A DNA stretch of 64,000 nucleotides from an uncultured Gemmatimonadales bacterium (GCA_963795085.1 CAWCFX010000004.1:576001-640000); one strand, 5' to 3'. Counted from the first letter of the stretch, positions 5,623 to 57,457 are shown. Made by a program: numbers and translations. Notes: generated by a model not told the origin, from the sequence alone.

Positions 5623-8600
5623 ATGTATCGTTCCGTATGTACGCTCCTCTCCCTCCTGGCGCTGGCTCCGGCGATTCCCGCGGCGGCCCAGATCGGGGCG
5701 GCCACCGACATCATCACCGGACAGGTGACCGACTCCACCGGGCGGCCGCTGGCCGAGGCGGTGGTAGAAGCGCTGTCTCTGGAGACCCAGGTGATGCGGA
5801 CCGCCAAGACCAACGGGAGCGGCCGCTTCACCATCCTCTTTTCGGACGGCGGCGGACAGTACCGGATGACGGCCCGCTCGATCGGGATGAGCCCGTTCAG
5901 CGCGACGCTGTTCCGCCAGGGCGAGGAGGACCGGCTGGTCTGGAACGTCCGGCTGAGCAGCCGCCCGGTCGTGCTCGACGAGATTACCATCCGGGGGGGG
6001 CCTCGTCCGGTGATCAATCCCGACCGGCCCACCGCCGGGTCCACCGAGCGGAGCCTGACCCCCGACGCGCTGTCCCGGCTGCCCTTCGACCCCACCGATC
6101 TCAACCTGCTGGCCACCCTGGTGCCGGGCGTCGTCGGCCTCGCGGGCAGCGACAGCACCGCCGCCGCCTTTTCCGTAGCGGGGCTCGGGCCGGAGGCCAA
6201 TGCGCTCACGCTGGACGGGCTTCTGTTCGGCACCGGCCTGGTTCCGCAGGAAGGGATCCGCAATACCCGGGTGATCACCAACACCTATGACGTGGCGCGG
6301 GGCCAGTTCAGCGGAGGCCTGGTGTCGGTCACCACCCGGAGCGGCAGCAACGTGGTGCAGGGGACCGCGAACTACTCCCTCCGCGACCAGGCCCTGTCGG
6401 CCGGCGCGGACGACTCGCCCTTCGGGCAGGCGTATAACCAGCAGACGCTGAGCGGGGGGATCGGCGGGCCGCTCCGCCACGACCGTTTCTTCGGGTTCGT
6501 CTCCGGCCAGGCGCGGCTGCGAGATGACCAGACGCTGTCGCTGCTCTCCGCCAACCCGGTCGACCTGGGCCGGCTGGGCGTTGCGCCCGACTCGGTGGAC
6601 CGGTTCATCGGGCTGGTGGGCGCCGAGGGCCTCTCGCCGGTCACCGACAGCAGCGGGAACCGCTCCAGCGACAACCTGAGCGCGCTGTTGCGGCTGGACT
6701 ACCTGATCTCCAACGCGCACACGCTGACGCTCCGGGGCGACTGGCAGGGCACCAGCCAGGATCCGACCCGGATCAGTTCCGTGGCCCTGCCCCAGACCGG
6801 CGGGATATCCAGTTCCTCGAGCGGCGGGGGCATGGCGACGCTGACCTCCCGGTTTGGCGCCGCGGTCATCAATGAAGCCCGGGTGTACCTCTCCGGGGCG
6901 CAGAACGACGGGACCCCGTTTCAGCCGCTGCCTTCCGGCCGGGTCCAGGTGGCTTCCGACTTTCCTGACGGAACTCAGGGCATCACCACGCTGGGTTTCG
7001 GCGGCAATACATCGCTGCCCCGCGAAAGCAGCACCAGCGGCCGGGAAGCGGCCAACGAGATCTCCTGGCTCCCGGGCGACGCCAGTCACCGGATCAAGCT
7101 GGGCGGCCTCTGGAGCCAGCGCCGGTCAACCGACGTGGTGGCGGCCAACCAGTATGGCACCTTCAGCTACAATTCGCTGGCCGACTTCGAAGCGGGCCAG
7201 CCGGCTTCGTTTACCCGCACGCTGGCGCCGATCCGGCGCACCTCGTCCTCGGATGAGTTTGCGCTCTATGCCGGTGATACCTGGAGGCTCAGCTCCGCCT
7301 GGCAGCTCACCTACGGGCTGCGCTGGGAGGCCACCGGACTCGGCAACGCACCGGCCTACAACCCGGCCGTGGACTCGGTTTTCGGGCGCCGCACCGACCG
7401 CTTCCCGGCCGACCGCCACCTGAGCCCCCGCATCGGCTTCAACTACATGGTGGGAACCGGCGGGGGCCTGCCCTCCCTGGTCATCCGTGGCGGAGTGGGT
7501 GAGTTCCGCAGCCAGATCGCCTCGCGGCTGGGGGCCTCCGCGGTGAGCGCGACCGGGCTCCCCAACTCCGAGGGCCAGATCTTCTGCGTCGGTGCCGACG
7601 TGCCCACACCCGACTGGGCCGCCTACCACCAGGACCCGTCAACGATTCCGGCCAGTTGCCTCGGCAGTGGAGGCCCGGCGAACCCGGCTCCCAGGAACGT
7701 GACGGTATTCGGCGAGGATTTCGGCGCTCCCCGGGCCTGGCGCAGTTCCCTCGGTGTCCAGAAAACGTTGACCGGCCTGATCCGGTTAACGGCGGACGCG
7801 AGCTACTCCCGGGGGGGGAGCCAGACCGGGTACCGGGAACTCAACCTGCGCAGCCAGCCGGCCTTTACCCTGGCGGCGGAGGGAAACCGCCCGGTGTTCA
7901 GTCCGGCCGCGGGTATCGTCCCAGAGACCGGCACGGTGCCGTTCACCGCCTCCCGGGCCGACTCTTCGTTCGGGCACGTGCTGGAGATCGGATCGGGAAT
8001 GGAATCGGAGGCGCTGCAGTTCTCGGTTGGCCTGACCGGAGTGACCCGCTCGGGAATCATCTTCAACGGGTCCTACACCTGGGCCAGCGCCCGGGATGCG
8101 GTGACCGGGATCGGGATGGGTCCGGAGGGGGGCAGCACGGCCGGCGATCCCAATGCCGGCCAGTGGGCTTCCAGCTCCTTTCAGCGGCGCCATTCCATTC
8201 TGCTCACGGCGATGGTTCCCCTCGGGCGGTCGCTGGAGCTGACGACCATCACCCGCCTTACCTCGGGCGCGCCGTTCACTCCGCTGGTGGGGTCGGATAT
8301 CAACGGCGATGGCTACCGAAACGACCAGGCTTTCATCTTCGGCGCCAACGCGCCGGCTGCCGTGGCGGCCGGCATGGCGAACCTCCTGGAAAATGCCTCG
8401 GGGCGGGTCCGGGCATGCCTGGAGTCCCAGGCGGGCAGGGTGGCCGATCGCAACAGCTGCAACGGGCCGTGGCAGCCCTCGCTGGACCTGCAACTGAACT
8501 GGCGACCCGCGTTCTGGGGACTCAATCGCAAGCTTTCCCTCCAGCTGGTTACCGTGAACATGCTGGGCGGGCTGGACCAGCTCCTTCATGGCAGCGACAA

Positions 8601-9234
8601 TCTCCACGGCTGGGGACAGAACACCCGGCCCGACCCGACGTTACTGTACGTGACCGGATTCGATTCCGGCAACCAGGCGTTTACCTACGCGGTAAACGAG
8701 CGGTTCGGGGCGGCCAACAGCAGCGCCAGCGCGTTCCGGTCGCCCTTCCAGATCGGGATCCAGGCCCGCATTACGATTGGTCCCGACCGCACCCGGCAGG
8801 CCATTGACGGGCTGCGCGGAGGCCGGGGCGGCGGCGGGGAGGGAGGGGGTCGCGGATTCGACCGGGAAACCATGATGCAGCGGCTGCGGGAGGCCTGGGT
8901 CAATCCGGCCCGCGGCGTCCTCGACCTCAAAGACACGCTGCAGCTCAGCGAAGCGCAGACCCTGGCGATTACCGCGCTGGCGGACTCGGTGCAGGGGAAA
9001 CAGGAGGCGCTGATCACGGCATTGTCCCGCCAGCTCGAGGAGGGCGGCTCCGGCGGCGACCCGCAGCGGATGATGGCTGCCCTGCAGCCCCTGTTCCAGG
9101 AGGGCATGACCACCACCCGCGACGCGGTCCAGCGGCTCCAGTCCCTGTTGACGCCGGACCAATGGGCCCGGGTACCGGAAACCATAAAGAACCCGGTGGG
9201 ACGTTTCGGCGGGCGGGGACGGCCTCCGCAATGA
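5623..9234 (+). CDS. Oar-like TonB-dependent receptor with N-terminal carboxypeptidase-regulatory-like domain and C-terminal helical extension
   Basis: Signal peptide from ATG 5623 (AAA-Q). CarboxypepD_reg-like ITGQVTDSTG. Plug motif YDVARGQFSGG..TRSGSN. Barrel motifs LTYGLRWE and SPRIGFNY. Confidence 0.8.
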   Translation: MYRSVCTLLSLLALAPAIPAAAQIGAATDIITGQVTDSTGRPLAEAVVEALSLETQVMRTAKTNGSGRFTILFSDGGGQYRMTARSIGMSPFSATLFRQGEEDRLVWNVRLSSRPVVLDEITIRGGPRPVINPDRPTAGSTERSLTPDALSRLPFDPTDLNLLATLVPGVVGLAGSDSTAAAFSVAGLGPEANALTLDGLLFGTGLVPQEGIRNTRVITNTYDVARGQFSGGLVSVTTRSGSNVVQGTANYSLRDQALSAGADDSPFGQAYNQQTLSGGIGGPLRHDRFFGFVSGQARLRDDQTLSLLSANPVDLGRLGVAPDSVDRFIGLVGAEGLSPVTDSSGNRSSDNLSALLRLDYLISNAHTLTLRGDWQGTSQDPTRISSVALPQTGGISSSSSGGGMATLTSRFGAAVINEARVYLSGAQNDGTPFQPLPSGRVQVASDFPDGTQGITTLGFGGNTSLPRESSTSGREAANEISWLPGDASHRIKLGGLWSQRRSTDVVAANQYGTFSYNSLADFEAGQPASFTRTLAPIRRTSSSDEFALYAGDTWRLSSAWQLTYGLRWEATGLGNAPAYNPAVDSVFGRRTDRFPADRHLSPRIGFNYMVGTGGGLPSLVIRGGVGEFRSQIASRLGASAVSATGLPNSEGQIFCVGADVPTPDWAAYHQDPSTIPASCLGSGGPANPAPRNVTVFGEDFGAPRAWRSSLGVQKTLTGLIRLTADASYSRGGSQTGYRELNLRSQPAFTLAAEGNRPVFSPAAGIVPETGTVPFTASRADSSFGHVLEIGSGMESEALQFSVGLTGVTRSGIIFNGSYTWASARDAVTGIGMGPEGGSTAGDPNAGQWASSSFQRRHSILLTAMVPLGRSLELTTITRLTSGAPFTPLVGSDINGDGYRNDQAFIFGANAPAAVAAGMANLLENASGRVRACLESQAGRVADRNSCNGPWQPSLDLQLNWRPAFWGLNRKLSLQLVTVNMLGGLDQLLHGSDNLHGWGQNTRPDPTLLYVTGFDSGNQAFTYAVNERFGAANSSASAFRSPFQIGIQARITIGPDRTRQAIDGLRGGRGGGGEGGGRGFDRETMMQRLREAWVNPARGVLDLKDTLQLSEAQTLAITALADSVQGKQEALITALSRQLEEGGSGGDPQRMMAALQPLFQEGMTTTRDAVQRLQSLLTPDQWARVPETIKNPVGRFGGRGRPPQ

Positions 9235-37405: not shown

Positions 37406-37457
37406 TTGACAGCGGGCTCCCTGCGTTGCATGTTTATGCATTATGCATAAACAGCCC
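37406..37457 (+). promoter_or_regulatory. Sigma70 promoter with ArgR operator (ARG boxes) overlapping the argG start
   Basis: TTGACA (37406) + 17 bp + CATGTT. ARG-like TGCAT-GTTT-ATGCA at 37427-37440. Perfect inverted repeat TGTTTATGCAT-T-ATGCATAAACA at 37431-37453. argR lies in the operon. Confidence 0.8.
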
Positions 37458-38639
37458 ATCGTCCTGGCCTTCAGCGGCGGACTCGATACCTCCTACTGTG
37501 TGCCCCGGCTGGCCGAGCAGGGGCACCCGGTGCACACCGTGTTCGTGGATACCGGAGGAAGCACCCGGGAAGAGAAGGACCGAATCCACCGGCAGGCGCT
37601 CGCGGTGGGCGCCGTCGCCCACCACGAGGTGGATGCCCGCGCCGAGGTGTACCAGCGGTTCGTGCGGTTCCTGATCCAGGGCAATGTGCTCCGGGGGGAG
37701 GTGTACCCGCTGAGCGTGGCGGCAGAGCGCACCCAGCAGGCCATGTCGGTCATCGCCAAGGCACGGGAGCTGGGGGCGGCGGCGGTGGCGCACGGTTCCA
37801 CCGGCGCCGGCAACGACCAGGTCCGGTTCGATATCGCGTTCCGGGTGCTGGCGCCGGACCTCGCCATCATCACACCCATCCGGGACGAGTCGGTCACCCG
37901 GGACGCCTCGATTCGCTACCTGCAGGAGCGCAGGCTGCCGGTGCCGGAGAAAGCCGGAGCCTACTCGGTAAACCGGGGCGGGTGGGGCACCACCTGGGGC
38001 GGTGGCTGGACCCATGACCCCTGGGCCGGTCCGCCCGAGGACCTCCTTCACCCGCCGGCCGATGCGCCCGAAGCCCGGGAGATCGTGGTCGGCTGGGAAG
38101 CCGGGTTGCCCATCTCGCTCGACGGCCGCCAGAAAGCAGGGCCCGACCTGGTCGAAACCCTGGGCGACCTGTCCCACCGCTATGGCCTGGGCCGAAACAT
38201 TCATGTCGGTGAGACTGCCATGGGTATCAAGGGCCGAATCGGGTTTGAGGCCGGGGCCGCGTTGCTTCTGATCGCGGCCCACCGGGAGCTGGAGAAGCTG
38301 GTGCTCACCAAGTGGCAGACGTTCTGGAAGGACCAGCTGGGCCGTTTCTACGGCGACCGGCTCCACGAGGGGCAGTATTTCGATCCGAGCCTCCGGGACA
38401 TCGAGGCCCTGATCACCAGTTCTCAGCGCCGCGTCGCCGGCGAGACCCGGGTGTTGCTGGCGCCGGGACGGTTCCAGGTGGTGGGCACCCGGAGCCCGTT
38501 CTCCCTGATGGATCCCGCCGTGGCCACCTACGGGGAAGAGGCCCGGCTCTGGTCCGGCGACGAGGCGCGTGCCTTTGCCCGGGTCGCATCCATTCCTTCC
38601 CTGCTCGCGGCTCGGGCCGGCCAGGAGAACGGCCGATGA
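37443..38639 (+). CDS. argG: Argininosuccinate synthase
   Basis: VLAFSGGLDTS, AHGSTGAGNDQVRF, GIKGR..FEA, AHRELEKL. Confidence 0.95.
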   Translation: MHKQPIVLAFSGGLDTSYCVPRLAEQGHPVHTVFVDTGGSTREEKDRIHRQALAVGAVAHHEVDARAEVYQRFVRFLIQGNVLRGEVYPLSVAAERTQQAMSVIAKARELGAAAVAHGSTGAGNDQVRFDIAFRVLAPDLAIITPIRDESVTRDASIRYLQERRLPVPEKAGAYSVNRGGWGTTWGGGWTHDPWAGPPEDLLHPPADAPEAREIVVGWEAGLPISLDGRQKAGPDLVETLGDLSHRYGLGRNIHVGETAMGIKGRIGFEAGAALLLIAAHRELEKLVLTKWQTFWKDQLGRFYGDRLHEGQYFDPSLRDIEALITSSQRRVAGETRVLLAPGRFQVVGTRSPFSLMDPAVATYGEEARLWSGDEARAFARVASIPSLLAARAGQENGR

Positions 38640-39700
38640 TGACCACCCGGGTTCGGCTTGACCGGATTGCCTCCTCCACCCGGAACGCCAACCTGGCCTC
38701 CGAGGTGATGGTCGGTCCCGAGATCGTCTCCGAAGAGGGTTACCTGCTCGCGGTGCGGATACTCGCGGACAAGTCTTCCTACAACTCGGTGGAGGATCTC
38801 TCGGGGCGGATGGTCTCCCTCCGCGGGGGCGATGTGCTGGCCGGAACCCTGGGCAGCCGCCGCGCCCTTCGGGGATACGCCGGCATCGTGCCGGAGCGCC
38901 TGGTCCCCGGCGAAACGATCGAGGTGCTGAACCTCGGCGGCATCCTGGGACGCTGCACGTCGATCAATCCCGACATCGGCCCGCCGTTCCAGGCCGAGGT
39001 GCTGGGTGCCATACTCACCTTTCCCGCGCTGGGCGACCGGGTCGGCCGCCCGGCCCACATCCGCGAGCACTCGATCCCGCCGGCCGACCGGCTCGATGCC
39101 GCGATCCCGGTGGTGTATGTCGCCGGGACCTGCATGAACGCGGGGAAGACCGTCGCCGCCACCGAGCTGGTCCGGGGGATGACCCGGTCGGGCCTGCGGG
39201 TGGCGGCCGCCAAGCTCACCGGGGTCTCGTTGATGCGGGACGCCCTGGCGATGACCGATGCCGGCGCGATTACCGCCGCCACTTTCAACGACGCTGGCAT
39301 CGCCACCACCCGCGCCGGCATGACGGTGCCGGTGGCCCGCGGCATCTTCAACCGGCTGGCCACCAGCAAGCCTGACGTGATTGTCGCCGAACTGGGCGAC
39401 GGCATCCTCGGCGAGTACGGGGTCCAGGACATCCTGCGCGACCCGTCGCTCACCGGGGTGGGCGCCGCCTATGTCATGGCCGCGCCCGATCCGGTGGGAT
39501 GCTGGGGCGCCGCCCAGCTGATGACGCATAGCTTCCACCTGCCGATCACCGTGTTCACCGGTCCCGCCACCGATAACGAAGTGGGGCGGGACTACATCCG
39601 GAACGCGCTCGAGCTTCCCGCCCACAATGCCCTGCGGGACAGCGGGGGACTGACCCAGGTCGTGCTTGCCGCCCTCGCCTCGAACCTGGTGACCGCGTGA
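38636..39700 (+). CDS. DUF1611/DgcN-like P-loop protein, candidate glutamate N-acyltransferase
   Basis: VAGTCMNAGKT P-loop, AAKLTG, DAG, VAELGDG. Overlaps both the argG stop and the argC start. Confidence 0.65.
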   Translation: MMTTRVRLDRIASSTRNANLASEVMVGPEIVSEEGYLLAVRILADKSSYNSVEDLSGRMVSLRGGDVLAGTLGSRRALRGYAGIVPERLVPGETIEVLNLGGILGRCTSINPDIGPPFQAEVLGAILTFPALGDRVGRPAHIREHSIPPADRLDAAIPVVYVAGTCMNAGKTVAATELVRGMTRSGLRVAAAKLTGVSLMRDALAMTDAGAITAATFNDAGIATTRAGMTVPVARGIFNRLATSKPDVIVAELGDGILGEYGVQDILRDPSLTGVGAAYVMAAPDPVGCWGAAQLMTHSFHLPITVFTGPATDNEVGRDYIRNALELPAHNALRDSGGLTQVVLAALASNLVTA

Positions 39701-40725
39701 AAGCCGTCGTCATCGGAGCCGCCGGATATGTCGGCGGCGAGTTGCTGCGGCTCCTGCTGCAGCACCCGGAGGTGACCATTTGTTCGGCAGTAAGCCGGAG
39801 CCAGGCCGGCAAGGCGCTGGGCGAGATTCATCCCGGGCTGCTGGGCCTGACCGACAGCGTCTTCAGCGGGGCGAGCCCCGCCGAGGCGGCCCGGGAAGCC
39901 GATGTGGTCTTCCTGTCCCTCGAGCACGGCGAGAGTTCCCGGATCGCGGCGGAACTCTTTGCCAACCCTCCCGCGCTGGTGGTGGACCTGGCGGCGGATT
40001 TCCGGGTGCCCCAGGTGCCGCTCTACGAGCGGTACTACGGCGCTCACCCTTCGCCCGACTTGCTGTCCCGATTTCAGTACGGCCTCGCCGATGTGCGGGG
40101 GACCGAACTGCGGGGCGCCCGGGCGATCGCGGTCCCCGGCTGTTTCGCGACCGCCGCCCAGCTGGCGCTCTACCCGCTGGCCGGCATCGTGGACGACGGG
40201 CCGGCCCTCTTCGCGATTACCGGCTCGAGTGGGAGCGGGGTGCATCCCCGGGCGACCACCCATCACCCGGCGCGCGCCAATAATGTATTCGCCTACTCTG
40301 TGCTCTCTCACCGGCACGAGGCCGAAATCCTGGGCCAGTGGCGGGCCTGGACCGGCCGGGAAGATGCGTCGGTCCGCCTGATGACCCATTCGGGCCCCTT
40401 CGTCCGGGGGATCTATCTCACCCTTCGGGCGACTCGGCGGGCGGGCGGGTCCGCGCAGGAGCCCGCCGCCTGTTTCGAACGCACCTACGCCGGGCGGCCC
40501 TTCGTGCGGCTGCTTTCCCAGCCACCGGAGCTGACCCATGCTGTCGGCGGCAACAGCGCGCTTATCCACGTGGCCGCCGATGCGGCCGGCGCCGACATCC
40601 AGGTGTCGGTGGCCATTGATAACCTCATCAAAGGCGCCGGGGGCCAGGGGGTGCAGGCCATGAACCTGGCGCTGGGCTTGTCCGAGACGGCCGGGCTGCC
40701 GGCCGGGGGAATGTTCCCATGCTGA
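39697..40725 (+). CDS. argC: N-acyl-gamma-glutamyl-phosphate reductase
   Basis: IGAAGYVGGEL, DLAADFR, catalytic PGCFAT, HRHEAEI, IDNLIKGAGGQGVQAMN. Confidence 0.95.
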   Translation: MKAVVIGAAGYVGGELLRLLLQHPEVTICSAVSRSQAGKALGEIHPGLLGLTDSVFSGASPAEAAREADVVFLSLEHGESSRIAAELFANPPALVVDLAADFRVPQVPLYERYYGAHPSPDLLSRFQYGLADVRGTELRGARAIAVPGCFATAAQLALYPLAGIVDDGPALFAITGSSGSGVHPRATTHHPARANNVFAYSVLSHRHEAEILGQWRAWTGREDASVRLMTHSGPFVRGIYLTLRATRRAGGSAQEPAACFERTYAGRPFVRLLSQPPELTHAVGGNSALIHVAADAAGADIQVSVAIDNLIKGAGGQGVQAMNLALGLSETAGLPAGGMFPC

Positions 40726-41897
40726 CGACGCCCGGAGCCCAGGTGGCCCCACGGCGCGGCGCCGCGCTGCTTCCGGTGTACGCGCCGATGCCGCTTCGGG
40801 CCCGGTCCGGCCATGGGTCCTGGCTGGTGGACGAGGACGGTAACCGGTGGCTCGATGCCTATGGCGGCCATGCCGTGTCCTCTACCGGGCACTGTCATCC
40901 CCGGGTGGTCCAGGCCATCGCCGACCAGGCCGCGACCCTGCTGTTCTATTCGACCGCGGTGCCTCACGCTGCGCGGGAGGAGTTTGCCGACCGGCTGGCC
41001 GCCCTCTGTCCTCCGCAGCTGGACCGGGTTTTCCTGTGCAACTCGGGCGCGGAGGCGAACGAGAATGCCCTGCATTTGGCCCGGCGTTTCACCGGCCGCC
41101 AGCAGGTGGTGACCCTGGAGGGCGGCTGGCACGGCCGGACCGCGGCGACCCTGGCCTGTTGTGACGGCGCCCGATACGAGGCTGGCGCCCGCCGGGCCGG
41201 AATGCCCCTTTCCCGCCGCGCGGCGTTCAACGACCTGGACAGTCTCGCCCAGGTTCTCGACGATTCGGCTGCGGCGTTGCTGCTGGAGCCGGTGCAGGGC
41301 ATGGCCGGGGCCCGCGATTGTACCAGGGAGTTTCTCCAGGGCGCCCGCCGGCTCTGCGATGAGCGCCGGGTGGTGCTGATCTTTGACGAGATCCAGTGTG
41401 GCGCCGGCCGGAGCGGCCATTTCACCGCGGCCGAAGCGTTCGGGGTCACGCCGGACATTGTCACCATGGCCAAGGGTCTCGCGTCGGGCCTGCCGATCGG
41501 CGCGGTGGTCGCGTCCCGGCGGGTGACCGACGATCTCAAAGTGGGCGACCTCGGGAGTACCTTCGGCGGCGGACCGGTCCCCTGCGCGGCCGGCATCGCT
41601 ACCCTGGATGTGATCCGGGACGAAGCGCTGCTCCACAACGTCCAGGCGGTCGAGCGGCGGATCCGGGAGGGTGCCCTCCGCTTGGGGATTCCGGTGCAGG
41701 GGAAGGGGTTGTTGCTCGGGCTCCGGCTGGGCCGGCCCGCCACACCGGTCCAGCAATCCCTGTTCGAGCGTCGGATACTCACGGGGACTTCTTCCGATCC
41801 CGAAGTGCTCCGCCTGCTGCCGCCGCTGACTTTTTCCGAGGCCGAGGCCGGCCTGCTGCTGGATAACCTCGCCGCTTCCCTGGAGGCGCGGCCATGA
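40719..41897 (+). CDS. argD: Acylornithine aminotransferase (class III)
   Basis: CNSGAEANE, WHGRT, LIFDEIQCG.GRSG, PLP lysine in MAKGLASG, STFGG. Confidence 0.92.
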   Translation: MLTTPGAQVAPRRGAALLPVYAPMPLRARSGHGSWLVDEDGNRWLDAYGGHAVSSTGHCHPRVVQAIADQAATLLFYSTAVPHAAREEFADRLAALCPPQLDRVFLCNSGAEANENALHLARRFTGRQQVVTLEGGWHGRTAATLACCDGARYEAGARRAGMPLSRRAAFNDLDSLAQVLDDSAAALLLEPVQGMAGARDCTREFLQGARRLCDERRVVLIFDEIQCGAGRSGHFTAAEAFGVTPDIVTMAKGLASGLPIGAVVASRRVTDDLKVGDLGSTFGGGPVPCAAGIATLDVIRDEALLHNVQAVERRIREGALRLGIPVQGKGLLLGLRLGRPATPVQQSLFERRILTGTSSDPEVLRLLPPLTFSEAEAGLLLDNLAASLEARP

Positions 41898-42904
41898 CCA
41901 AGCGCGATTTCCTTGCCGTGGAAGACTGGTCGCCTGCCCAGATCACCGCCCTTCTCGACCTGGCCGACCGGGTCAAGCGGGGCGAGGTGAGCGGCGGCCT
42001 GGAGCGGAAGGTCATGTCGCTGGTGTTCATGGATCCGAGCCTGCGGACCCGGGCCAGTTTCGAGGCGGCGATGTTCCTGCATGGCGGGCACGCCATTGTG
42101 TTGGAGCCGGGCAAGGGCAGCTGGACCCTGGAGACGGAGCCGGGCGCGGTCATGGACGGCGCCTCGGTCGAGCATATCGCCGATGCGGCCCGGGTGCTGG
42201 GGCGCTATGCCGACGTTGTCGGCGTGCGGAGCTTTCCCCGGGGGAGCGACTGGCAGGTGGCCCGCCAGGACCGGGTCATCCGCAACTTCGCCCGCTACTG
42301 CGAGAAGCCGGTGATCAACCTCGAGTCCTCGCGGCGGCACCCCTGCCAGGAGCTGGCGGACGCGATGACGCTGCGGGAGACCCTGGGGGATACCCGCGGC
42401 AAGCGCTTCGTGCTGAGCTGGGCCTGGCACCCCAAGGCCCTCCCGACGGCGGTGCCGGTGAGCGCCGCGCTGGCCGCGGCCCGGCTGGGTATGGAAATCG
42501 TGATCGCGCGGCCCGAAGGGTATGAGCTGGATCCGGATGATACCGCGCTCATCCGGCAGGTCACCCGGGAGTCCGGCGGCCAGGCGGTCCACATCATCAA
42601 CGACCCCGATGAAGCGCTGGTGGGTGCCGACGCGGTCTATGTCAAATCATGGGGCTCGTTGAAGCTGTACGGAAAACCCGACGAGGAGCAGGCCCTCCGC
42701 CACGGCCACCGTGACTGGAAGCTGACCGAGTCCCGCCGCCGCTCCAGCCGGGGAAGCAAGGGAGTCGTGATGCATTGCCTGCCGGTGCGGCGTAACGTGG
42801 AGATCGACGACGAAGTCCTCGACGGTCCCCACTCGGTGGTGGTGGACCAGGCCGAAAACCGGCTCCATGTCCAGCGGGCGCTCCTGCTGGAGATGCTCCG
42901 ATGA
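41894..42904 (+). CDS. argF': N-acyl(succinyl/acetyl)-ornithine carbamoyltransferase
   Basis: SLRT carbamoyl-phosphate site, W.LE....MDG...EH loop, HPCQ, WAWHPKALP proline-rich loop, HCLPVRRN. These mark the AOTCase/SOTCase family rather than classical OTCase. Confidence 0.92.
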   Translation: MTKRDFLAVEDWSPAQITALLDLADRVKRGEVSGGLERKVMSLVFMDPSLRTRASFEAAMFLHGGHAIVLEPGKGSWTLETEPGAVMDGASVEHIADAARVLGRYADVVGVRSFPRGSDWQVARQDRVIRNFARYCEKPVINLESSRRHPCQELADAMTLRETLGDTRGKRFVLSWAWHPKALPTAVPVSAALAAARLGMEIVIARPEGYELDPDDTALIRQVTRESGGQAVHIINDPDEALVGADAVYVKSWGSLKLYGKPDEEQALRHGHRDWKLTESRRRSSRGSKGVVMHCLPVRRNVEIDDEVLDGPHSVVVDQAENRLHVQRALLLEMLR

Positions 42905-42966
42905 GCGGCCGGCCGGGTGGGGTGCCGGGGACGGCGGGGCGGAAAACCGATACCGGAGAGACCAGG

Positions 42967-43899
42967 GTGATCGATTCAGCGAAGGGGGTGGTGGGACTCA
43001 AGGGCGCGTTGCGGTACGTGCGGGCCTACCGGGACAATATCTTCGTGCTCAAGCTGGGCGGAGACGTGGCGGGCGAGAGCGATACGCTGGACCATGTCGC
43101 CGCGCAGGTCGCCCTGCTTTCGTCCCTGGGCATCAAGCTGGTCATCGTGCACGGCGGCGGCCCCCAGGCCACCCGGGTGAGCCGCCGGCTGGGATTCGAG
43201 CCGCGGATGGTGAACGGCCGCCGGGTGACCGACGATTCCGCGCTGGAAGTGGCCAAGATGGTGTACGCCGGCACCATCAACGTGGACGTCGTGGCGGCCC
43301 TGCGGAGCCACGAAGTCCAGGCGGTGGGCCTCTCCGGCGTGGACGCCGACCTGCTGACCGCGCACCGGCGCCCACCGGTGACGGTGGCCACCGCCGGAGG
43401 GGGCAGCGAACTGGTGGACTACGGCCATGTCGGTGATCTCGACGGGGTGGATCCGCGGGTCCTGCACACCCTGCTGGCCGGCCGGTTCGTCCCCGTCATC
43501 GCCAGCCTGGCCGGCGACCAGGACGGCAACATCTTCAACGTCAACGCCGACACCGTGGCCGAGTCGCTGGCGGTATCACTCCAGGCCCAGAAACTCATCT
43601 TTCTCACTGGCGCGCCCGGTATTCTCCGGGACCGGAACGACGACTCGACCCTGGTCGCCTTTGCCGATCCGGAAGAGCTGGGCGCCCTGATGGCCGCCGG
43701 CGCGATCCAGGGCGGCATGCTGCCCAAGGTCGAAGCGTGCATCCGCGCGGCGACCAACGGGGTCGAGCGGACCCACATCATCGGCGGGAAGGGCACCGAC
43801 GCGCTGCTGCTGGAGGTGTTCACCGGGGCCGGGTGCGGCACCATGATCGTGGGGCGCAAGGAAAAGGCCGCCTATCTCGATGTCGATCTCGCCGACTGA
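42967..43899 (+). CDS. argB: Acylglutamate kinase
   Basis: VLKLGG, VHGGGPQ, GRRVTD, NVNAD, GGMLPKV. Probable GTG 42967; alternative ATG 42901. Confidence 0.93.
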   Translation: MIDSAKGVVGLKGALRYVRAYRDNIFVLKLGGDVAGESDTLDHVAAQVALLSSLGIKLVIVHGGGPQATRVSRRLGFEPRMVNGRRVTDDSALEVAKMVYAGTINVDVVAALRSHEVQAVGLSGVDADLLTAHRRPPVTVATAGGGSELVDYGHVGDLDGVDPRVLHTLLAGRFVPVIASLAGDQDGNIFNVNADTVAESLAVSLQAQKLIFLTGAPGILRDRNDDSTLVAFADPEELGALMAAGAIQGGMLPKVEACIRAATNGVERTHIIGGKGTDALLLEVFTGAGCGTMIVGRKEKAAYLDVDLAD

Positions 43900-44962
43900 G
43901 ATCGCGCTGCTCCGCGACCTGGTCGCCACCCCTTCGGTCAGCGGGACCGAAGAGGCGGCCGGTCAGCTGGTGGAGACGGTCGCCCGGCAATGGGGTCTCG
44001 ACGTGGTGCGCGATGATGCCGGGGTGCGGATCGAAGTGGATTTCGGGGGCGGCGGGCCTACCCTCGCCCTGGTCAGCCATCTCGACGTGGTACCGCCGGG
44101 CGAAGGATGGACCCGCGATCCGTTCACCCCGGTGGTCGAGAACGGCCGCCTGTACGGGCGCGGCTCCGGCGACGCCAAGGCCTCGGTCGCGGCGATGCTG
44201 ACGGCGGCGCGGGACACGGCGGGGGATCGCTCCGGTGCCGCCGGGCGGCTGCTGGTCCTCCTGGGGTACGGCGAAGAGACCCACGACACCACGATGGCGG
44301 AAGCCGTACGCCGGTCCGGAACCATCGATGCGGCGGTGATCGGTGAGCCAACCAATCTCGAGGTCGCGGTAGCCCAGCGGGGCCTGCTGATGATCGACCT
44401 GGTGGCCCGGGGCAGCCAGCGACACGCCGCCTATGCCGGAGACGGCACCTTCACCAATGCCCTCGAGGTGCTGGCCCGGGACCTCGGCGCGCTGGGCGCC
44501 CTCTGCCGCGACCGGCCCCACCCGGTGCTCGGCCATCCCACGATCACCCCGACGATGGTCAGCGCCGGGGTGAGCCGCAACGTCACTCCGCCGACGGCCA
44601 CCGCGATCCTCGATGTGCGCAGCACGCCGAACTGGACCCATGAAGAGCTGGCAGAGGCTATCACGCTGGTCGTGAAATCGGAGGTCGTGGTGACGTCGGA
44701 CCGGCTGGTGCCCTGCGAGACTCCGGCGCCCTCGCGCCTCCTCGAGGCGGCGCTGGAGGTCCGGCCCGGGGCGGGGCGCTACGGCAGTCCTACCTGTTCG
44801 GACTGGGTCTTTCTCCGGCACGTGGACGCCTTCAAGTGTGGCCCGGGCACCAGCAAGGTTTCGCACACGCCGGACGAATGGGTCGCCCTGGCCGAGGTGA
44901 CCGAGGCGAGGTCATTCTACGGCAGGCTGGTGAAGACTTACCTCAATGCGGCGGCCCGATGA
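43880..44962 (+). CDS. argE: M20 deacylase (acylornithine/acylcitrulline deacylase)
   Basis: SHLDVVP, LYGRGSGDAK, GEE, IGEPT, HTPDE. Confidence 0.88.
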   Translation: MSISPTEIALLRDLVATPSVSGTEEAAGQLVETVARQWGLDVVRDDAGVRIEVDFGGGGPTLALVSHLDVVPPGEGWTRDPFTPVVENGRLYGRGSGDAKASVAAMLTAARDTAGDRSGAAGRLLVLLGYGEETHDTTMAEAVRRSGTIDAAVIGEPTNLEVAVAQRGLLMIDLVARGSQRHAAYAGDGTFTNALEVLARDLGALGALCRDRPHPVLGHPTITPTMVSAGVSRNVTPPTATAILDVRSTPNWTHEELAEAITLVVKSEVVVTSDRLVPCETPAPSRLLEAALEVRPGAGRYGSPTCSDWVFLRHVDAFKCGPGTSKVSHTPDEWVALAEVTEARSFYGRLVKTYLNAAAR

Positions 44963-46347
44963 AACCTGCACCGAAGCGGCCTACCCTGTGGGCCGCCCAT
45001 GCCACGCCGGACCCGGCCATGCTGGCCTACACCGCGGGCTCCGACCAGGCCTGGGATGCCCGGCTGCTGCCCTGGGACATCCTCGGCAGCCTGGGCCACG
45101 TCGAAGGCCTCGCCGCCTCCCGCCTGATCACCGGGCCTGACCGGGTCCGGCTGCAGCGGGCGCTGCGGTCCGCGCTGCGCGCCGCGGACCGAGGGTCGTT
45201 GGCGCTCGCGCCGGGCGACGAAGACGTCCACACCGCGGTGGAGAACTGGCTGACGGCCAGGTTCGGCCGGGTGGGCGAGATGGTCCATGCGGGCCGCTCC
45301 CGCAACGACCAGGTCGCTTGCGACTTGCGGCTCTACCTCAAAGCCCGGGTGCTCGCGCTGCATGCCCGGGGCCGGGGCGTGGTGCGCCAGCTGCTCGCCT
45401 TTGCCGCCCGGGAGCGGCGCTCGCTCTGGCCGGGCTACACCCACACCCGCCGGGCGATGCCCTCATCCGCGGCGCTCTGGGCGGCGGGGATCGCCGAGGG
45501 GTTGCTGGAAACGCTCGACGCGGCGCCGGCGTTGTGGGGACAGGTGGATCGTTCGCCCCTGGGGAGCGCGGCGGGGTATGGCGTCCCTCTCCCGTTGAAC
45601 CGGGAGGCCGCGGCGCGCGCGCTCGGATTCGGCGGACTCGACCACGCGGTGACCAGCACCCAGAACAGCCGCGGCCGCATCGAAGCGGCGGCGCTCTTCT
45701 GGTGCGCGCAGATTGCCCACGAGCTGGCCCGGTTGTCGGCGGACGTGATTCTCTTCAGCGCGGAAGAGTTCGGCTTCCTGGAGCTTCCCGCCGCGTTCGC
45801 GACCGGTTCCAGCATCATGCCCCACAAGAAGAACCCCGACCTGTTCGAAGTGACCCGGGCCCGCGCCGGGCTGGTCGAGGGTGACCTGGCTTCCGTGCTG
45901 GCCGTTCGGGGCAAGCTGACCAGCGGCTATCATCGCGACTACCAGCTGCTGAAGGAGCCGCTCTTCCGGGGGCTCGACCGGACGGAGGAAATGCTCGCCA
46001 TGCTGGAGCGGGTGATTCCGGCGCTGGTCGTCGCGCGCGGCCGGGCCCGCGCCGCGGTCTCCGGCGACCTGCTGGCGACCGACGAAGTCATGCGGCGGGT
46101 GGAGCGGGGGACGCCGTTCCGCCGGGCTTACCGCGAGGTCGCGCGCCTGCTGGCGGACGGCGAGCCGCCCGAGTCCGCGTCTCCCGGCGCGGTGCTCGCG
46201 CGGCGGCGTTCCACCGGCGGGATTGGGAATCCGGGCCTGCCGGTGCTGGCCCGAAGGCTCCGCGCCCGGGAGCAGTGGGAGAACCGGGAACGCACGCGGT
46301 TCTTCACCGCCATGACCCGGCTGGCCGGACGGAGGGTGGGTGAGTAG
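44959..46347 (+). CDS. argH: Argininosuccinate lyase
   Basis: EDVHT, HAGRSRNDQV, PGYTH, GSSIMPHKKNPD. Confidence 0.95.
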   Translation: MKPAPKRPTLWAAHATPDPAMLAYTAGSDQAWDARLLPWDILGSLGHVEGLAASRLITGPDRVRLQRALRSALRAADRGSLALAPGDEDVHTAVENWLTARFGRVGEMVHAGRSRNDQVACDLRLYLKARVLALHARGRGVVRQLLAFAARERRSLWPGYTHTRRAMPSSAALWAAGIAEGLLETLDAAPALWGQVDRSPLGSAAGYGVPLPLNREAAARALGFGGLDHAVTSTQNSRGRIEAAALFWCAQIAHELARLSADVILFSAEEFGFLELPAAFATGSSIMPHKKNPDLFEVTRARAGLVEGDLASVLAVRGKLTSGYHRDYQLLKEPLFRGLDRTEEMLAMLERVIPALVVARGRARAAVSGDLLATDEVMRRVERGTPFRRAYREVARLLADGEPPESASPGAVLARRRSTGGIGNPGLPVLARRLRAREQWENRERTRFFTAMTRLAGRRVGE

Positions 46348-46780
46348 CGAACGGAGGAAACGGCATCTTCGCATCCTGGAGCTGATCACCACGCGCCCGG
46401 TCCGCACCCAGGACGAACTCGCCGCGGCGCTGTCGTCCGAAGGATGGAAAGTCACCCAGTCGAGCGTGAGCCGGGATATCGCCGTGCTGGGCCTGGTCAA
46501 GTCGGGGGGGGCCTATCGCCGGGGCCTGCCCCGGGTCCCGGCCGACCCCGACGAGCAGCGCATCAGCGAGGGCGTGCTTTCGGTGGAACGGGCCGGTGAT
46601 GCGTTGCTGGTGGTGCACACCCCGCCCGGGGAGGCCAACCGGGTGGCCGTGGCCCTGGACCGGCTGGCGTGGAACGATGTCATGGGCACCATTGCCGGCG
46701 ACGACACCCTCTTCATCGCGGTGCGGGACCGGGCCAGCCAGACCCGGGTCCACCGGCAGCTGACCAAGATGAGTCCCTGA
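46340..46780 (+). CDS. argR: Arginine repressor
   Basis: TQDEL, VTQSSVSRDI, GTIAGDDT. Confidence 0.95.
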   Translation: MSSERRKRHLRILELITTRPVRTQDELAAALSSEGWKVTQSSVSRDIAVLGLVKSGGAYRRGLPRVPADPDEQRISEGVLSVERAGDALLVVHTPPGEANRVAVALDRLAWNDVMGTIAGDDTLFIAVRDRASQTRVHRQLTKMSP

Positions 46781-46909: not shown

Positions 46910-49411
46910 ATGGCGCTCTTCAGCGGGATCGACATCGCGAACATTCGTGGCAGTATCCGGGGACGGCTCACGCTGATGGCGGCGGCCGTGGTCGCCGCCT
47001 TTCTGCTGCTGTCCATCTCGGAGAGTTACGCGGTCCGGCTGATTCTCCACCGGGTGGAGGCGGACGGCCTGGCCCGCCGGCTGCACTACGCTCAGCGGTT
47101 TTTTGCCCGCCGGGCGGAGACCAAGGCCAACCTCATCAGTGAATTCGCGTTCTGGAATGACACCTGGCGGGCCGTCGAAGCCCCCCACAGCCTCGAATCG
47201 CGCACCCATATCCGGGAGAATTTTCTGGAGTGGCTGCCCCAGCGCTACGGGGAGCGCCTGGTCGAACTGTGGGACAAGGATCGAACGCCGGTCTGGCGCT
47301 GGGCCGATACCGCGATGGTCGGGCTCCAGCCGGGGTTCGACTGGACGGCGCTGTTCGACCGGCTGGATTCCAGCCGGCTGGGCGGCGGGTACCTCCAGAC
47401 TCCGCGGGGCGTCATGCTGGTGTCGGCCGGGGTGATCCTGCGGGAGTGGGATATTACGCTCAAGGGCCCCACCAACGGATACCTGGTCGCCGCCGAGCCC
47501 ATCGATTCTGCCCGGCTCCGCCGGTTCGAGTATGAACTGCAGGAGTCGATTGCCCTCGAGCCGCTGCCGGCCGGCTGGGTTGGTGATTCGGTGCGGATGG
47601 ACGTGGCCGGCGACCAGGCGCAAGCCACCTTCCCCCTCATGGGATTCGACGGACGCCCGGCGGCCCTGGTGACGATCAGTTCACCCCGGGTGGTGAACCA
47701 GCAGCTGGCGCTCTGGACGACGGTGCTCATTGCCGTCACCATGGTGGTGGGTGTGGTGGTGCTCGGTGTGCTCTGGCGGGCGGGCCACCGGCTGGTGGTG
47801 CGGCCGCTGGGCGAGATCGGCGAGAAGCTGGAAAACATGGAACGGGCGGGGGATCTCTCCCGGATCGAAACCTCTCCCCCGACCCGGGAATGGGGGCTCT
47901 TCGTCTCGGCCTTCAATCGCACCATCGACGCGCTCAAGAGCTCGGAGCGCCGGTATCGCGTCCTCTTCGACCATGCCGCGGACGCCCACCTGCTGCTGGA
48001 CGCCAAGACCCAGACCATCCTGGAAGCCAACCCGGCCGCGGAGCAACTGGCCGGGCGGGACCGCCACGCCCTGATCGGGCGGCCCTTCTCGACGGTGGTC
48101 AAGCTGGAACCTTCGGGCTCGCGGGACGGGACCTTTCGACTCCGGCGCCCCGATGGAACTCAGCTCATCGTCGGGGTGGCGACCGCGGAACTGGAGATCG
48201 CCGGCGCCCCCCGTCAGCTGGCTTCGCTGCGCGACCTGACCCGTAACGAGGCCCTCTCCGCCCAGCTCCGGCAGGCCCAGAAAATGGAGGCCGTGGGCTC
48301 CCTCGCCGGCGGGATCGCCCACGACTTCAACAACCTGCTGGGAGCGGTCATCATGGCCTCCTCCACGCTGAAGGAGGAGGTCGCCGGCAACCCGGCGGCC
48401 GCTGAATCCATCCAGACGATCGAACAGGCCTCCCAGCGGGCCGCCGAACTCACCCGGCGCCTGCTCAGTTTTGCCCGGCGGGAGCAGACCGTCAGCGCCC
48501 CGGTCGCGATGAACGAAGTAGTCCAGAACGTGGTGCGGCTGTGCGAGCGGACCTTCAACCGGGTAATCCGGATCGAGGTTGAACTCGATGACCCGCTGCC
48601 CCCGGTCTCCGGTGATGCCGGCCAGCTGGAGCAGGCGCTCCTGAATCTCTGCATCAACTCGCGGGACGCGATGCCACAGGGTGGCATCATCCGCATCGTG
48701 ACCCGGACCAGAAAGGTCTCTATCCGCGAGCCGGCGCACACCAGCGACCTGGAACCCGGTTCCTACGTGACCGTCTCGGTGAGCGACACCGGGTTCGGGC
48801 TGACCCAGCAGGCGGAGCAGCACCTGTTCGAGCCGTTTTTCACCACCAAGGGCCAGGGCAAAGGCACCGGGCTTGGCCTCGCGATGGTCTATGGGATGGT
48901 TCGGGCGCACGGCGGAGCGATCGTGGTTCGCAACCGGCCGGGACAGGGAGTGGAGTTCGAGGTCTTTCTGCCGATGAGACCGGACGGCGCCCTGGAACCG
49001 GCGCATACGCTGACCAGCGGCCCGGCCCGGGGGGAGGAGCGGCTGTTGCTCATCGACGACGAGGCGGCTCTGCGCCGATCAATGGCCCGGGCGCTGACCC
49101 GGCTCGGCTATCACGTGGCGGTGGCGGAGAACGGCGCCCAGGGAGCCCGGATGGTGCAGGAGGATCCCGAGGCGTATGACCTGGTGATCCTCGACATGGT
49201 CATGCCCGAAATGGGCGGAGCCGAAGCGTTCCACGTCATCCGGCAGATCCGGCCTGACATGCGCATCCTGGTGTGCTCCGGGTATTCCGCCGACGAAGAA
49301 CGCAACGAGTTGATACGGGACGGCGCATCCGGGTTCCTGCAGAAGCCCTTCGACACCGTCACTCTCACCGGCGCGATCCGGGAGATCCTGGACGGGGTGC
49401 GTTTGGCCTGA
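46910..49411 (+). CDS. Membrane hybrid histidine kinase (CHASE4-like-HAMP-PAS-HisKA-HATPase-REC)
   Basis: Two TM segments flank an AFWNDTW CHASE4-like domain; GGIAHDFNNLL, G boxes and a C-terminal receiver. Confidence 0.9.
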   Translation: MALFSGIDIANIRGSIRGRLTLMAAAVVAAFLLLSISESYAVRLILHRVEADGLARRLHYAQRFFARRAETKANLISEFAFWNDTWRAVEAPHSLESRTHIRENFLEWLPQRYGERLVELWDKDRTPVWRWADTAMVGLQPGFDWTALFDRLDSSRLGGGYLQTPRGVMLVSAGVILREWDITLKGPTNGYLVAAEPIDSARLRRFEYELQESIALEPLPAGWVGDSVRMDVAGDQAQATFPLMGFDGRPAALVTISSPRVVNQQLALWTTVLIAVTMVVGVVVLGVLWRAGHRLVVRPLGEIGEKLENMERAGDLSRIETSPPTREWGLFVSAFNRTIDALKSSERRYRVLFDHAADAHLLLDAKTQTILEANPAAEQLAGRDRHALIGRPFSTVVKLEPSGSRDGTFRLRRPDGTQLIVGVATAELEIAGAPRQLASLRDLTRNEALSAQLRQAQKMEAVGSLAGGIAHDFNNLLGAVIMASSTLKEEVAGNPAAAESIQTIEQASQRAAELTRRLLSFARREQTVSAPVAMNEVVQNVVRLCERTFNRVIRIEVELDDPLPPVSGDAGQLEQALLNLCINSRDAMPQGGIIRIVTRTRKVSIREPAHTSDLEPGSYVTVSVSDTGFGLTQQAEQHLFEPFFTTKGQGKGTGLGLAMVYGMVRAHGGAIVVRNRPGQGVEFEVFLPMRPDGALEPAHTLTSGPARGEERLLLIDDEAALRRSMARALTRLGYHVAVAENGAQGARMVQEDPEAYDLVILDMVMPEMGGAEAFHVIRQIRPDMRILVCSGYSADEERNELIRDGASGFLQKPFDTVTLTGAIREILDGVRLA

Positions 49412-57384: not shown

Positions 57385-57457
57385 TGGGGTGTAGCTCAAT
57401 TGGCAGAGCGCCCGGCTGTTAACCGGGAGGTTGCTGGTTCGAAGCCAGCCGCCCCAG
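57385..57457 (+). tRNA. tRNA-Asn (GTT), CCA not encoded
   Basis: Acceptor TGGGGTG/CGCCCCA+G, D arm GCTC-AATTGGCA-GAGC, anticodon arm CCCGG-CTGTTAA-CCGGG, T arm GCTGG-TTCGAAG-CCAGC. TAGATT -10-like hexamer upstream. Confidence 0.96.

Follow-up and report, generated by a model that had tools for sequence, protein, structure and literature searches.

The window analyzed in this study is a stretch of 64,000 nucleotides from an uncultured Gemmatimonadales bacterium (GCA_963795085.1 CAWCFX010000004.1:576001-640000; G000:C4:576001-640000 in our numbering), whose genome amounts to 3.9 Mb in 6 contigs and is 93.42% complete. Pfam and NCBIfam scans revealed that positions 37443-46780 on the plus strand form a single translationally coupled operon in the order argG, X, argC, argD, argF', argB, argE-like, argH, and argR. 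The product of gene X (P0001, 354 amino acids; 38636..39700, +) is likely an enzyme that forms N-succinyl-L-glutamate, as we predict from the analysis described below. An earlier note on this DNA had described an operon with argB, argC, argD, argF', argE, argG, argH, and argR that lacks argA and argJ, and the scans agree with that description. They also show that X is, as the note had stated, the sole operon gene without an assignment and that it is coupled on both sides, through 4-nucleotide overlaps with argG (ATGA) and argC (GTGA).

Upstream of X, argG (37443..38639, +) encodes argininosuccinate synthase (PF00764, PF20979; TIGR00032, 267.3 bits). Downstream, argC (39697..40725, +; TIGR01850, 322 bits) is followed by argD for N-acylornithine aminotransferase (40719..41897, +; PF00202, 304 bits; TIGR00707, 322 bits), argF' for a knotted N-acylornithine transcarbamylase with V92, P184, and E303 (41894..42904, +; NF003384, 417 bits with a cut-off of 288), and argB for N-acylglutamate kinase (42901..43899, +; TIGR00761, 225.5 bits). 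The next gene (43880..44962, +; PF01546, PF07687) encodes an ArgE/DapE-type M20 deacylase, which scored 136 bits with TIGR01910, below the cut-off, and 130 bits with the succinyl-diaminopimelate desuccinylase (DapE) model NF009557 versus 110 bits with the ArgE model TIGR01892; its substrate is likely to be N-succinylcitrulline. The operon is completed by argH for argininosuccinate lyase (44959..46347, +; TIGR00838, 286.7 bits), the start of which is the ATG overlapping the argE stop in a common ATGA, and argR for the arginine repressor (46340..46780, +; PF01316, PF02863; TIGR01529, 115.7 bits, below the cut-off of 130.45). Overlaps between adjacent genes range from 4 to 20 nucleotides, and the Pfam scan detected no GNAT or ArgJ domain in any gene of the operon.

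ArgA and ArgJ occupy the pathway position that we propose for X, but X differs from them in kind: Pfam and NCBIfam detected no GNAT, amino-acid-kinase, or ArgJ domain in X, and its acyl group is probably succinyl. Across the whole genome, neither PF01960 (ArgJ) nor PF04768 had a match on the 6 contigs, and no protein exceeded the cut-off of the ArgA model TIGR01890 in this genome or in any of 41 relatives. The only TIGR01890 matches in the genome were ArgB itself and a 161-amino-acid GNAT on contig 3 (L002, G000:C3, 1426-1911, -), the sole GNAT there that resembles the acetyltransferase domain of ArgA at all (E = 8.9e-9). By eye, this GNAT gene is flanked by a Cys-rich methyltransferase-like open reading frame (ORF) and an ArsR-like ORF, and its product looks like an arsenic-resistance acetyltransferase of the ArsN type.

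The association of X with arginine genes was analyzed by scanning one genome per species with a 12-sequence alignment of X. Of the 588 confirmed relatives that the scan returned, the best 80 were used further, and neighboring genes were called by tblastn with the Arg proteins of the window. In 80 of the 80 loci, X has argG and/or argC as a same-strand neighbor at a distance of at most 1.1 kb, and tblastn found ArgJ in none of them. The loci span at least seven phyla (Gemmatimonadota, Myxococcota, Acidobacteriota, Planctomycetota, Proteobacteria, Elusimicrobia, and a bin labeled Verrucomicrobia), with approximately 25 of the 80 labeled Myxococcota, Acidobacteriota, Planctomycetota, Alphaproteobacteria or “proteobacterium”, Elusimicrobia, or Verrucomicrobia. 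Among the 41 relatives, X is present in 15 (14 orthologous, and one, G035, with a 34% identical paralog only) and ArgJ in 10, with an overlap of 0. A 61-genome sample of the phylum contained X in 15, ArgJ in 30, both in 0, and ArgB above the cut-off in 48. The earlier note had suggested such profiling and had named, as one outcome that would speak against its proposal, a canonical argA or argJ elsewhere in the genome together with homologs unlinked to arg genes; we found neither gene in the genome and arg linkage at all 80 loci.

ArgF' (NF003384 above the cut-off) is present in 13 of the 61 genomes, and all 13 carry X. An orthologous X holder, G073, has ArgB and no NF003384 match at E ≤ 1e-60. 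The 61-genome counts include G083; when it is left out, X is found in 14 and ArgF' in 12 of 60 genomes, and the overlap between X and ArgJ is still 0. An X-like query matched 64 of 201 genomes of the phylum, and the X carriers include a genus whose genomes consist of one to three contigs. The distribution fits X replacing ArgA or ArgJ, and it fits equally X belonging to the ArgF'-type linear pathway.

The relatives that have ArgB and lack X provide a comparison. They carry a short GNAT that matches the ArgA acetyltransferase domain with E values of 1e-14 to 1e-21 and is encoded within or next to the argC-argB-argD genes, usually 1.5-2 kb from argB; in the X genomes, the best ArgA-domain GNAT match is weak (E values of 1e-8 to 1e-10). 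G018 was left out of this comparison. Of five non-X regions, four have argC-argB-argD and argR-argG-argH, and the fifth, which is ended by its contig, has argC-argB-argD only. Their proteins are 32-40% identical to those of the window, and X, argF', and argE are in none of the five; in one of these relatives, G033, the coordinates place the GNAT just downstream of argD. Seven relatives had no TIGR01890 match at all; with no ArgB-like kinase and no ArgA-like GNAT detected, they say nothing either way.

X had no NCBIfam match, and its lone Pfam match, to PF07755 (DUF1611), reached 20.2 bits (cut-off, 25) and covered residues 155-201 only. None of the 12 unfused X representatives scanned (14 proteins in all) reached that cut-off. 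A phmmer search of PDB sequences returned short-chain dehydrogenases at E ≥ 0.018, which were set aside as chance matches. The best 120 of 2258 homologs are 75-84% identical to X; all named ones among them are called “hypothetical protein” and come from metagenome-assembled genomes of Gemmatimonadota. An exhaustive search of representatives at 50% identity gave 1394 relatives at E ≤ 1e-3 and 169 at E ≤ 1e-30, and the named relatives among the 120 matches listed by a profile search belong to Planctomycetota, Elusimicrobia, Chloroflexi, Eisenbacteria, and others. In the ESM Atlas, X-type clusters carry automatic names such as “DUF1611 domain-containing protein” and are commonest in Pseudomonadota.

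The AlphaFold2 model of X, made with a 58-representative alignment (pLDDT 97.1, pTM 0.93), consists of two domains. The N-terminal domain (residues 1-146; 38636..39073, +) is beta-rich when modeled alone (pLDDT 91.2) and matched 0 of 48,161 PDB chains at Z ≥ 5, with a best Z of 3.6, although a modeled domain without a match does not by itself establish a new fold. The C-terminal domain (residues ~151-354; 39086..39697, +), compared by VIA-align and hhalign, is a SIMIBI-type P-loop domain and contains the GTCMNAGKT motif to which the earlier note drew attention, a Walker A motif at residues 164-172 (39125..39151, +). In VIA-align, DUF1611, BioD, ApbC, and DgcN were nearly tied as its closest folds: 2g0t (DUF1611) gave Z 17.5, 2obn (DUF1611) Z 16.3, 8zkc (ApbC) Z 16.0, the BioD structure 1a82 and the BioD part of the bifunctional 4a0f Z 15.9, and 7xrj (DgcN) Z 15.4 with a root-mean-square deviation (rmsd) of 3.1 Å over 182 residues. 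The matches to DUF1611 (2G0T, 2OBN) and DgcN together show an rmsd of 3.0-3.1 Å over 182-184 residues. HypB, UreG, and MeaB also matched, with Z 12-15. Foldseek against the PDB returned generic SIMIBI NTPases (SRP GTPases, BioD, ParA, MeaB, HypB), and neither DUF1611 nor DgcN 7XRJ was among the 50 matches listed.

Profile comparison placed BioD closest. hhalign gave a probability of 57.7% (E = 1e-4, 179 columns) for X against 18 true DUF1611 proteins of the phylum, in the P-loop domain only, versus 93.6% (E = 2.2e-7, 100 columns) against 15 BioD proteins, the best profile–profile match. In the BioD alignment, K171/T172 of X fall on K16/T17, K193 on K38 (the invariant lysine of “KPV”), and E252 on E116 (the Glu of EGxGG), and these residues are kept in 57-58 of 58 X-family representatives (G170 and K171 of the Walker A motif in 58, T172 in 57). 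Unlike X, BioD has no N-terminal beta domain and no arg linkage, and the match does not extend beyond the first half of the P-loop domain; the BioD model TIGR00347 had no match at E ≤ 0.001 in the genome of the window.

The earlier note had pointed to a resemblance between X and DUF1611 and had suggested comparison with that family and with DgcN. The structural side of this held, since both are near-top fold matches (Z 15.4-17.5), and DUF1611 shares with X the P-loop fold and the layout GT..N.GK ... E-G-x-G. On the other side, the Pfam score is below the cut-off, BioD is closer by profile, and the N-terminal domains of X and DUF1611 do not align. The DUF1611 proteins of the phylum have GKMT and no Lys at the position of K193, in contrast to the GKT and K193 of X. 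A true DUF1611 paralog is encoded separately in the same genome (L101, G000:C6, 1441-2520, -; PF07755, 250.8 bits), and the DUF1611 family is present in 46 of the 61 genomes, with or without X. Judged by these sequence features, X is DUF1611-like in fold only and is not a DUF1611 member, and its catalytic motifs are at least as BioD-like.

Variant forms of X were also observed. Rare long proteins (P0237, P0250, P0389-P0391) combine X with an amino-acid kinase domain (626 amino acids) or with ArgC domains (661-687 amino acids). A word-index search for longer X proteins found 4, 3 of them X+ArgC-like, each as a single sequence on one contig. These fusions may be real, or they may be frameshift artefacts of the 4-nucleotide gene overlap; those with ArgC restate the adjacency of the two genes and are weak evidence. 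The 34% identical paralog in G035 (contig C21; L132 6574-13173, gene 7874-8947), the only such X-like paralog among the 201 genomes, has no arg context. It follows a 407-amino-acid unassigned ORF and precedes a gene for an 800-amino-acid M36-like protein with a PGA_cap domain (poly-gamma-glutamate CapA) and an ABC exporter. G035 keeps a standard argC-argB-argD cluster and an ArgA-like GNAT match, and its paralog may act on glutamate in another pathway.

The residues of ArgF' bear on the acyl group carried through the pathway. According to a passage of PMC4581275, the acetyl-type enzyme is marked by Glu92, Asn185, and Lys302, and the succinyl-type enzyme by A/S/P/V/Q, P, and V/I/E at these positions. 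The ArgF' of the window has V92, P184, and E303 in its own numbering, aligned to positions 92, 185, and 302 of the Xanthomonas enzyme. All 60 ArgF' proteins found in the 80 loci show the succinyl pattern, for which I, T, and Q were accepted at position 92 besides A/P/S/V: position 92 is V (54 proteins), A (3), I (1), T (1), or S (1); position 185 is P in all 60; and position 302 is E (54), V (5), or I (1). The top PDB sequence match of the window ArgF' is 3l06, a Xanthomonas variant with V at position 92. These succinyl-type residues suggest that the pathway probably runs on N-succinyl rather than N-acetyl intermediates, so that X would make N-succinyl-L-glutamate.

We propose that X N-acylates L-glutamate in the first step of arginine biosynthesis, in place of ArgA or ArgJ, with N-succinyl-L-glutamate as the most likely product. 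Citrulline would be reached from N-succinylglutamate through ArgB, ArgC, ArgD, the ArgF' of succinyl type, and the M20 deacylase, and ArgG and ArgH would convert citrulline to arginine, with the whole operon under the control of ArgR. Within X, the SIMIBI P-loop domain would be the catalytic core, with the Walker A Lys-Thr, K193 of the BioD “KPV” type, and the Walker B Glu E252, and the substrate pocket is probably formed by the N-terminal beta domain, which is specific to the family. The earlier note had proposed X as a non-orthologous replacement of ArgA; linkage at all 80 loci, the lack of overlap with ArgJ, and the lack of ArgA and ArgJ in the genome favor that idea, with the amendment that the acyl group is probably succinyl and not acetyl.

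A candidate site for regulation by ArgR lies 3 nucleotides before the argG ATG: the exact ARG-box-like palindrome TGCAT-N4-ATGCA (TGCATGTTTATGCA; 37427..37440, no strand assigned). The palindrome alone is within chance, as 0.85 such sites with at most one mismatch are expected per window. Of 72 related loci, 47 have the motif, again with at most one mismatch, in the 160 nucleotides before argG, which makes it plausible as an ArgR operator. The ARG box of the earlier note is backed by its recurrence and not by the single site. Promoter and terminator scans gave no more than chance-level signals. Directly 3' of argR lies a gene (46910-49411, +) whose predicted product, a hybrid sensor kinase, combines CHASE4, PAS, HisKA, HATPase, and receiver domains, and a tRNA gene (57385-57457, +), the lone Rfam match in the window, is far from the operon.

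The composition of X clusters varies in some loci. Four from Myxococcota or “Deltaproteobacteria” (L078, L083, L084, and L098) and the cluster of genome G073 are without argF' and have the order X-argC-(argD)-argB-argE-(argR)-argG-argH. An alpha/beta-hydrolase gene (Abhydrolase_1/6) lies within three X-type clusters (L043 10973-12064, L053 10996-12081, and L093 7016-7948). It separates argD from argF' in two of them, which are from Gemmatimonadales, and argG from X in the third, a proteobacterial locus with no ArgE nearby. The inserted hydrolase could be an alternative N-acylcitrulline hydrolase.

Two acyl donors can be considered for X. BioD catalyzes ATP-dependent N–C bond formation via a phosphorylated intermediate, and SIMIBI-class enzymes that form N–C bonds from free acids also include formyltetrahydrofolate synthetase and CobQ/CbiA. 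DgcN, a D-glutamate N-acetyltransferase that resembles X both in its P-loop fold and in the N-acylation of glutamate proposed here, catalyzes an acetyl-CoA-dependent reaction. By analogy with BioD, we tentatively give a slight preference to ATP plus free succinate, via succinyl phosphate, over succinyl-CoA. The canonical GKT, the BioD-type Lys, the Walker B Glu, and the stronger BioD profile match suggest this ATP route, in which succinyl phosphate would form on the P-loop site and then be attacked by the amine of glutamate, and succinate freed by the deacylase of the operon would be re-used. X might be named, still as a speculative assignment, an ADP-forming succinate:L-glutamate ligase with a BioD-type site, in which the fold-novel N-terminal domain would hold glutamate and no CoA thioester would take part. 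Against the ATP route, DgcN is the sole characterized glutamate-N-acylating enzyme of the X fold and is catalogued as an acetyl-CoA enzyme, the DgcN type being EC 2.3.1.312 in an excerpt of PMC11747546. A DgcN-like transfer from succinyl-CoA is nearly as probable as the ATP route.

Several observations weigh against our assignment of X as the N-succinylglutamate-forming enzyme. The main caveat is that the genome contains 20 generic GNAT (PF00583) matches, all outside the operon, any of which could perform the first step; the genome is also just 93% complete. X and ArgF' occur together, so that the anti-correlation with ArgJ may stem from the succinyl, linear type of pathway and not from the step of X itself. 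Most of the 80 loci are from Gemmatimonadota, and related genomes are non-independent. The fusions are singletons and possible artefacts, and the paralog of G035 stands outside any arg context. In L078, L083, L084, L098, and G073, which are without argF', the acyl group is unreadable from ArgF'. Where ArgF' is present, the succinyl call follows a residue rule from one review passage, and the window ArgF' scores higher overall with the Xanthomonas acetyl-type enzyme (320 bits, ~55% identity) than with the Bacteroides enzyme of succinyl type (181 bits).

The 20 GNAT matches raise an alternative, which we consider unlikely, that a generic GNAT encoded elsewhere makes the acylglutamate and that X has some other task in the succinyl-type pathway, such as nucleotide-dependent regulation, a scaffold function for ArgB, or metal delivery to the M20 deacylase in the manner of a G3E-type SIMIBI GTPase. 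In favor of this alternative, X travels with ArgF', so that its profile is not specific to the first step; HypB, UreG, and MeaB also match the fold of X, and a fusion of X with an amino-acid kinase domain exists. However, no GNAT was present in the extra ORFs inspected within X clusters, whereas non-X relatives hold one beside argD, and all other steps of the pathway already have an enzyme. Moreover, a Steroidobacter carrier reportedly lacks ArgE and yet keeps the gene. A role of X as a metallochaperone was set aside because no Cys/His metal motif is conserved in the family, with C166 kept in just 30 of 58 representatives.

The likeness of ArgF' to the Xanthomonas enzyme leads to a further alternative, that X synthesizes N-acetylglutamate and the pathway of the operon uses acetylated intermediates. 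ArgF' is above the cut-off of the NCBIfam model for N-acetylornithine carbamoyltransferase, and the cataloguing of DgcN as an acetyltransferase points the same way. In contrast, the three specificity positions are succinyl-type in the window and in all 60 linked ArgF' proteins, the top PDB match of ArgF' is the V92 variant, and the GapMind 2026 preprint (10.1101/2024.10.14.618325) reports succinyl-type residues at position 92 for 90% of 70 ArgF' proteins. An acetylated pathway is thus rather improbable. Least probable is that X is a transacylase returning succinyl from N-succinylcitrulline or N-succinylornithine to glutamate as a functional analog of ArgJ, since the mutual exclusion of X and ArgJ and the reported lack of ArgE in some carriers are outweighed by an M20 deacylase in most clusters, including that of the window, by the still missing de novo source of the first succinylglutamate, and by the fact that we know of no P-loop fold that carries out energy-neutral transacylation.

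Our preferred reading, that X forms N-succinyl-L-glutamate, has precedents. A passage of a 2015 review (PMC4490483) described the glutamate-succinylating enzyme as then unidentified, and an excerpt of PMC8121099 presents the Bacteroides GNAT BT3761 as an N-succinylglutamate synthase with genetic support. BT3761 resembles X in its proposed reaction, succinylated pathway, location in an arg operon, and arginine repression; in contrast, it has the unrelated GNAT fold, and its role is genetically supported while that of X is predicted. The earlier note had regarded X as a new candidate, but the same prediction is in the GapMind 2026 preprint, which names ACG33_RS14135 (UniProt A0A127FCT3) of Steroidobacter denitrificans as a predicted alternative N-succinylglutamate synthase. 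The function prediction is therefore already published, and X appears to be one more member of the predicted family.

The preprint states that homologs of ACG33_RS14135 are virtually always in arg operons and never alongside ArgA homologs, that ACG33_RS14135 has a weak Foldseek match to DgcN 7XRJ, and that 90% of 70 linked ArgF' proteins have A/P/S/V at position 92. Like X, ACG33_RS14135 is described there as a hypothetical protein among argB, argC, argD, argF', (argE), argG, argH, and argR, and all these descriptors are reproduced for X. The carriers differ in that Steroidobacter is reported there to lack ArgE, whereas the Gemmatimonadota operon keeps an ArgE-type deacylase. X looks like a member of the same family by these matching descriptions only; no Steroidobacter name was among the 120 matches listed by the X-family profile search. 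In the preprint, an acyltransferase is assumed by analogy with DgcN, and the BioD-like residues and the N-terminal domain are not discussed. Since the idea is already in print, the value of the window lies in corroboration and in a sharper question about the acyl donor.

If our reading is correct, a P-loop protein and not a GNAT would start arginine synthesis in Gemmatimonadota and in parts of Myxococcota, Acidobacteriota, Planctomycetota, Elusimicrobia, and Proteobacteria. Many other phyla with succinyl-type ArgF' are without the Bacteroides GNAT. Thousands of “hypothetical proteins” would receive a name, and carriers would no longer be mis-called arginine auxotrophs in metabolic models. Should X prove to be an ATP-dependent ligase, arginine biosynthesis would here begin with an enzyme of a new class.

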